547 nt of DNA from Escherichia coli (lineage in GTDB: Bacteria > Pseudomonadota > Gammaproteobacteria > Enterobacterales > Enterobacteriaceae): NCBI RefSeq assembly GCF_003334385.1, contig NZ_QOWN01000168.1, one strand, 5' to 3'. The translations under genes were made by a program, and so were the position numbers. A model generated the notes under the pieces. That model was given only the letters and a program-made list of their open reading frames with translations. It had not been told where the DNA came from and searched no databases. Positions 1 through 547 of this stretch are shown here, piece by piece. Each line of letters opens with the position of its first letter. The first letter of the stretch is position 1.

Positions 1-24
1 GTAAGCGTACAGCCTGAACCGTCT
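1..24 (+). repeat. Putative left terminal inverted repeat (IRL) of the IS66-family element; the inner boundary is approximate
   Basis: Seen in sequence: 5'-GTAAGCGTACAGCCTGAACCGTCT at the very start of the window. Established knowledge: IS66-family IRs begin 5'-GTAAGCG. The length cannot be fixed without the right end for comparison. Confidence 0.45.
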
Positions 25-71
25 GGTCAGAATCTGACGAATTAGACAAAGTGGTGTCCACCAAATAAGTA

Positions 72-473
72 GTGGGAACCAAAGTGTCAGATATGCAGAA
101 AAATGTGACTCCCGGCAGGCGAAAAGGCTGCCCTAATTATCCTCCCGAATTTAAACAGCAGCTCGTTGCTGCCTCCTGTGAACCCGGGATATCCATCTCA
201 AAACTTGCTCTTGAAAATGGCATTAACGCCAATCTGTTGTTCAAATGGCGACAACAATGGCGCGAGGGAAAGCTGCTATTACCTTCTTCAGAGAGCCCCC
301 AGCTACTTCCTGTGACTCTCGATGCAGCTGCCGAACAGCCAGAATCGCTCGCAGAGGACCCGGAAACCCTCAGTATCAGCTGTGAGGTAACGTTCCGGCA
401 CGGGACGCTCCGCTTCAATGGCAATGTCAGCAAAAAGCTCCTGACTCTGCTGATACAGGAACTGAAGCGATGA
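72..473 (+). CDS. tnpA: IS66-family accessory protein TnpA (orf1), a small predicted HTH DNA-binding protein; 133 aa from GTG72, with in-frame alternative starts at GTG84 and ATG93 (127 aa)
   Basis: Seen in sequence: intact ORF ending at TGA 471-473. Residues ~40-60 (nt ~189-251, [22 protein letters not shown]) have a helix-turn-helix-like pattern, followed by an acidic Pro/Ser/Glu-rich linker and a C-terminal leucine-rich helix ([13 protein letters not shown]). Position immediately upstream of, and overlapping, the tnpB-like ORF fits IS66 orf1. No strong Shine-Dalgarno precedes any candidate start, so the start is uncertain. Confidence 0.85.
457..460 (+). promoter_or_regulatory. Shine-Dalgarno-like AGGA for tnpB, embedded in the 3' end of tnpA
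   Basis: Seen in sequence: AGGA at 457-460, 9 nt upstream of ATG 470. Consistent with translational coupling or reinitiation at the ATGA junction. Confidence 0.4.
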
Positions 474-547
474 TCCCGTTACCTTCCGGGACCAAAATTT
501 GGCTGGTTGCCGGTATCACCGATATGAGAAATGGCTTCAACGGCCTG
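470..547 (+). CDS. tnpB: IS66-family accessory protein TnpB (orf2), N-terminal 26 codons only; 3' end truncated by the window edge
   Basis: Seen in sequence: ATG 470-472 overlaps the tnpA stop TGA 471-473 (ATGA). Translation [26 protein letters not shown] runs open to the end of the window. An AGGA Shine-Dalgarno at 457-460 sits 9 nt upstream of the ATG. The N-terminal motif matches IS66 orf2 proteins as recalled. It is absent from the ORF track only because no stop codon falls inside the window. Confidence 0.8.

Follow-up and report, generated by a model that had tools for sequence, protein, structure and literature searches.

Organization of the window

The stretch of DNA analyzed here (the window) is 547 bases long and makes up the whole of contig QOWN01000168.1 in the Escherichia coli assembly GCA_003334385.1, with which it is byte-identical; this contig (L013) came up in an exact-protein search with the E114K form of TnpA. 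Its contents run from a left inverted repeat (IRL) through a complete tnpA gene into the start of tnpB; it contains neither tnpC nor the right repeat, and the larger part of tnpB is missing. The features are as follows.

1 to 547, plus strand: the window, consisting of the IRL, a 92-nucleotide leader, the whole of tnpA, and the first 26 codons of tnpB
1 to 22, plus strand: IRL assigned to ISEc8, beginning GTAAGCG (alignment to the reverse-complemented right end of full copies)
23 to 92, plus strand: untranslated leader from the IRL to tnpA, with two short palindromes and an imperfect direct repeat
93 to 473, plus strand: tnpA, 126 amino acids, IS66-family accessory protein with an HTH_Tnp_1 domain (RefSeq annotation, PF01527, NF047595)
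432, plus strand: A in place of the G of consensus ISEc8, giving TnpA E114K relative to WP_001171554.1 (sequence and translation comparison)
470 to 473, plus strand: ATGA overlap of the tnpB start codon (ATG, 470 to 472) with the tnpA stop codon (TGA, 471 to 473), read from the sequence
470 to 547, plus strand: first 26 codons of tnpB, ended by the contig end (identity to WP_000612591.1)

The original prediction had taken GTAAGCG at position 1 for the terminus of an element, and the comparison of copies agrees with it. The motif occupies bases 1 to 7, and the DNA just before base 1 is unrelated among five independent copies (L001, L002, L008, L009, and L010), so that base 1 is the true terminus. 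When the right end of full copies is reverse-complemented, the IRL is identical to it over bases 1 to 13 and matches it at 18 of the first 22 positions; IS66 terminal repeats are described as being 20 to 30 bp long and starting with GTAAGCG (PMC11946415). The leader that follows holds two palindromes, at 26 to 38 (GTCAGAATCTGAC) and 52 to 63 (TGGTGTCCACCA), and an imperfect direct repeat (49 to 65 and 67 to 83). Within the 2,442-bp element, these motifs are confined to the leader, and they could be protein-binding sites. A promoter scan of the leader detected no sigma-70 consensus.

RefSeq annotation starts tnpA at the ATG at position 93, versus a GTG at position 72 in a mechanical list of open reading frames. 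The small helix-turn-helix protein gene proposed from the letters alone was recovered by two models: TnpA matches Pfam HTH_Tnp_1 (PF01527) with an E value of 2.4e-12 and NCBIfam NF047595 ("IS66-like element accessory protein TnpA") with 97.2 bits, above the curated cutoff of 74 bits. The coupled reading frame noted behind it is also in place, and the RefSeq coordinates of tnpA and tnpB give the same 4-base overlap as that at 470 to 473. We infer that this overlap would couple the translation of tnpB to that of tnpA. The 26 tnpB residues in the window are identical to residues 1 to 26 of RefSeq TnpB WP_000612591.1, and together with the NF047595 match of TnpA they bear out the tnpA-tnpB signature on which the family assignment had been based. 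The complete tnpB product is an IS66-family accessory protein TnpB of 115 amino acids (NF033819/PF05717). On its own, the 26-residue fragment matches NF033819 (IS66_TnpB) weakly (E value of 0.0036) because so little of TnpB is present; full-length TnpB from full copies scores 120 bits against a cutoff of 50.

Just upstream of the tnpB start lies an imperfect inverted repeat (411 to 469, 73% complementary) that covers an AGGA ribosome-binding motif. The substitution G432A falls within this repeat, where it replaces a G-U pair with an A-U pair. Folding of the hairpin is not significant (z score of −1.83; 11 of 200 shuffled sequences fold equally well), and at this z score we do not claim it as a regulator of tnpB.

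Identity of the element

Matches to the window were found by megablast in 3,465 of 5,426 complete E. coli genomes, at 11,104 places. Of the 4,315 E. coli records that match the whole window, 4,132 are at least 99% identical to it, which excludes a chance match. In PLSDB, 1,939 plasmids match, from Escherichia, Klebsiella, Salmonella, Shigella, Citrobacter, and others. RefSeq-annotated copies are 99.8% identical to the window (546 of 547 bases), with G432A as the sole mismatch, and the matching DNA is labeled tnpA and tnpB, followed immediately downstream by "IS66-like element ISEc8 family transposase."

The reference copy of ISEc8 used here (L002:3685-6126, from E. coli OkiPb01695) interrupts an MFS-transporter gene. 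It shares with the window the terminal repeat, the leader, tnpA, the ATGA overlap, the tnpB start, and a G at base 363; it differs by the base at position 432 (TnpA E114K) and by being a full element with tnpC and a right repeat. The TnpC that it encodes is 512 amino acids long and scores 463 bits against NF033517 (cutoff, 180); its Pfam domains are LZ_Tnp_IS66, zf-IS66, DDE_Tnp_IS66, and DDE_Tnp_IS66_C (PF03050, PF13005, PF13007, and PF13817), and on TnpC of full copies PF03050 reaches an E value of 1e-106. The right repeat of the full-length relatives ends ...GTACGCTTAC. In L002, the left end of ISEc8 is present in an exact 184-bp tandem duplication (3501 to 3868), so that two left terminal repeats stand in a row; the element length of 2,442 bp is counted without it. 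The 8-bp duplication in this contig, CCTTTAAA, flanks the outer ends of the element at 3501 and 6126, that is, it flanks the outer repeat. Neither L001 nor L009 has an 8-bp target duplication, because both are rearranged. The three hallmarks of IS66 elements named in advance, a DDE transposase of about 500 amino acids, a right inverted repeat, and an 8-bp duplication, are therefore all seen in full-length relatives of the window.

Other copies show further rearrangements of these elements. Two ISEc8 copies that contain the exact window sequence, L009 (578 to 2866) and L011, have lost 153 bp of tnpC in frame (ISEc8 bases 2066 to 2218), which shortens TnpC from 512 to 461 amino acids. In E. coli O103:H2 12009 (L014:3001-3228), three solitary IS66-type left ends, each starting with GTAAGCG, are stacked head to tail, with a complete ISEc8 directly downstream of the stack, and one of the three corresponds to the initial 47 bp of ISEc8 itself. 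This stack suggests that IS66 relatives insert repeatedly at or near each other's ends. Another contig (L004:1-56) shows a nested insertion, one IS66 relative having inserted into another: an IS66-type right end (...GTCGCTTAC) abuts base 232 of tnpA in an ISEc8-like element with 93.6% identity to ISEc8.

The DNA identity, the family hidden Markov models, and the tnpC gene, right repeat, and 8-bp duplication of the full-length relatives together support the original reading of the window as the left arm of an IS66-family element. We put at about 95% the probability that this arm belongs to ISEc8, which is an IS66-family insertion sequence of 2,442 bp in Enterobacteriaceae, and that the window is at the same time the complete contig QOWN01000168.1. 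It had also been predicted that an ordinary mobile element would explain everything in the window, as it does: a catalogued insertion sequence covers every base at 99.8% identity. That coverage effectively refutes a function apart from mobile elements, for instance as a small RNA, as a helix-turn-helix regulator on its own, or as a component of a novel system. What could be cited for such a function is an unremarkable 98-amino-acid antisense open reading frame and an Rfam match to isrJ on the minus strand at 470 to 535; this match (20.7 bits, E value of 0.19) lies below the gathering score of 37 and is treated as chance, and the hairpin before tnpB is, as described above, not significant.

Which named insertion sequence the arm belongs to had been left as a question, and the answer is a qualified one. 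ISEc8 (L002) and the copies labeled ISEc22 by RefSeq (L006 and L007) are identical over bases 1 to 549 except at base 363, and their TnpA proteins are nearly identical; from base 550 onward, outside the window, identity drops to 80 to 91%, so that the window spans nearly the exact block that the two elements have in common. Because ISEc22 shares the arm, a single base within the window decides the name: base 363 is G in the window and in ISEc8 and A in the ISEc22 copies examined, which weakly favors naming the window ISEc8 rather than ISEc22. Past the window end, an intact ISEc8 copy would continue with GCTGCGAAAGTACAG and an ISEc22-type copy with GCGGCAAAGGTGCAG or GCGGCAAAGGTG.... It is very unlikely that the arm belongs to ISEc22 or to an ISEc8/ISEc22 hybrid, even though the "ISEc22 family" elements L006 and L007 have a left arm that matches the window at 99.6% identity and one copy of the remnant described below (L020) has the ISEc22-type combination 363A with 432G. 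The window has two mismatches to ISEc22-labeled copies versus one to ISEc8-labeled copies, and those copies of the exact window sequence that reach further (L009, L010, and L011) continue as ISEc8, at 99.2 to 99.5% identity, compared with 89 to 92% to ISEc22.

A truncated remnant and the origin of the contig

A copy of the window at 100% identity lies within a 15.6-kb isolate contig (L008:4909-5455, from GCA_040919985.1), where it is followed by non-IS DNA (ttaagaatttcc...). Directly after base 547, this contig continues into a partial ABC-transporter gene of colicin/microcin plasmids, and to the left of the copy is a fragment of a Tn3-family (TnEc1) transposase. The remnant as a whole (4909 to 5494) encodes a 38-amino-acid tnpB stub, and tnpC and the right repeat are absent. 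The same junction at base 547 is present in a metagenome contig (L005:229-775) and in L015 to L020 (at about 2532 to 3117). Assembly chimerism was considered for L005 and rejected, since the whole 1,900-bp mosaic recurs in L008 at 99.7% identity. If the source genome of the window holds the remnant, its right flank there would start with TTAAGAATTTCCTGGCGAAG (TTAAGAATTTCCTGGCG, TTAAGAATTTCC...) and its left flank would end ...GCCAATTACCCCAAACAAAA.

The remnant is widespread in draft and metagenome assemblies: the index lists its 38-amino-acid stub in 79 blocks of the collection, and the contigs concerned reach 210 kb. The base 547 junction was not found in PLSDB, in complete RefSeq E. coli genomes, or among GTDB representatives. 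The remnant sits between a fimbrial chaperone-usher cluster with the TnEc1 fragment on one side and a patchwork of fragments of ABC-transporter and colicin/microcin-immunity genes on the other; the adjoining fimbrial usher cluster was likewise not found in PLSDB. Like the window, the remnant in L005, L008, and L015 to L020 ends exactly at base 547, and the L008 copy is identical to it throughout. Unlike the window, these copies have known flanks inside long contigs; the window is without flanks and need not be the remnant locus.

Copies of the remnant other than that in L008 differ from the window by 1 to 3 bases, and most of them have 432A. This base is a rare lineage marker. It occurs in the lineage of the 547-bp remnant and in a few metagenome ISEc8 copies, and with an 81-base query it was found in 1 of 20,395 complete E. 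coli records. There was no 432A variant among the PLSDB plasmids, and the exact variant was absent from IMG/VR viral contigs and from GTDB representative genomes. The sole complete E. coli genome with 432A is that of O157:H7 strain F7386, in a truncated ISEc8 copy (L003:2675-4081). The first 333 bases of that copy have been removed by insertion of IS1203 (an IS3-family element), and it adjoins an efa1/lifA-like pseudogene with a TcdA/TcdB glycosyltransferase domain. Both markers of the remnant lineage are nonsynonymous in TnpA, namely, A160T (Q23L), present in most remnants, and G432A (E114K). The two substitutions, few as they are, may reflect relaxed constraint.

The original prediction expected tnpC downstream of the window. 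The gene is present in full copies that are 99.8% identical to the window and absent from the identical remnant in L008; tnpC thus need not follow the window, since in L008 the insertion sequence ends at base 547. A truncated or solo accessory-gene remnant had been named as the alternative, and exactly this is seen in L008 and in near-identical copies. The window itself is compatible with both states: an intact or longer copy fits it equally well, because the longer ISEc8 copies L009 and L010 begin with the same 547 bases.

Contig QOWN01000168.1 is probably a collapsed repeat. A short-read assembler would isolate bases 1 to 547 if the genome held at least two copies of the arm with different flanks on both sides, and at least one of these copies would be the widespread immobile remnant fused to the ABC-transporter fragment. 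The right end of the contig is meaningful in this respect because it coincides exactly with the remnant junction at 547. Judging from this one contig of the assembly, it seems reasonably likely that the source genome holds the remnant plus at least one further copy of the arm.

The contig could alternatively have ended near an assembly fork between ISEc8 and ISEc22 in a genome with only intact mobile copies and no truncated remnant. Counted jointly, ISEc8-type and ISEc22-type arms occur in most E. coli genomes, and the near-identity of L002 with L006 and L007 up to base 549, followed by divergence from base 550, would supply such a fork. We regard this explanation as unlikely. A fork predicts a contig end at base 549, whereas the contig ends at 547, at the exact remnant junction; 432A, which marks the remnant lineage and is so rare among complete E. 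coli records, is present in the window; and the ISEc22 copies examined have A at base 363, where the window has G. A collapsed repeat that includes the remnant is therefore the reading that we prefer for the contig.

Mechanism and module exchange in the IS66 family

IS66 and IS679 are the members on which the IS66 family was founded and in which its genetics has been studied. All three genes are reportedly needed for transposition of IS679, a result said to have been obtained by Han and coworkers in 2001, and the roles ascribed to TnpA and TnpB are said to rest on IS679 genetics. In full copies of ISEc8, the IRL (1 to 22) would be the left end recognized and cut by the DDE transposase TnpC, which is encoded downstream. 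The tnpA gene supplies a small helix-turn-helix DNA-binding accessory protein, tnpB would be translated in coupling with it, and 8 bp of target DNA are duplicated on insertion. IS66 elements have been described as carrying tnpABC and generating 8-bp duplications, with TnpC thought to be the active transposase (PMC6778807), and beta-clamp-binding motifs have been reported in TnpB and/or TnpC (PMC3971601). Our literature search found no recent mechanistic paper on IS66 TnpA or TnpB. ISEc8 resembles IS66 and IS679, compared by architecture only, in its GTAAGCG terminal repeats, its tnpA-tnpB-tnpC order, and its 8-bp duplication (PMC6778807, PMC11946415), although those two are distinct elements that come from other hosts or plasmids. 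Cut after base 547, the remnant would be immobile on its own; it would still encode TnpA and could serve as a substrate for homologous recombination, that is, as portable homology.

ISEc8 is an already catalogued and very abundant element, and the window reveals no new biology. It does carry a caution for genome scans, in that very short draft contigs are typically collapsed repeats whose ends are boundaries of repeats rather than of genes. Nor is a lone left arm proof that the element is intact or has a unique name, as two named insertion sequences share this arm and a dead remnant has exactly the same sequence.

The alignment of L002:3685-6126 (ISEc8) with L007:2101-4541 (ISEc22) is a mosaic that changes abruptly at base 550, with third-codon-position differences in tnpB. 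From these sequences, the mosaic would imply a recent exchange of a block comprising the left repeat and tnpA. The switch from about 100% to about 85% identity between ISEc8 and ISEc22 occurs at this point, and the truncation of the remnant, an independent event, lies 2 bp away. On these grounds one could speculate, although we consider it quite unlikely, that bases 547 to 549 (tnpB codons 26 and 27, in its most conserved motif) are a recurrent recombination or module boundary in the IS66 family. If this were true and the proximity no coincidence, IS66 relatives would exchange the terminal repeat plus tnpA as a single module.
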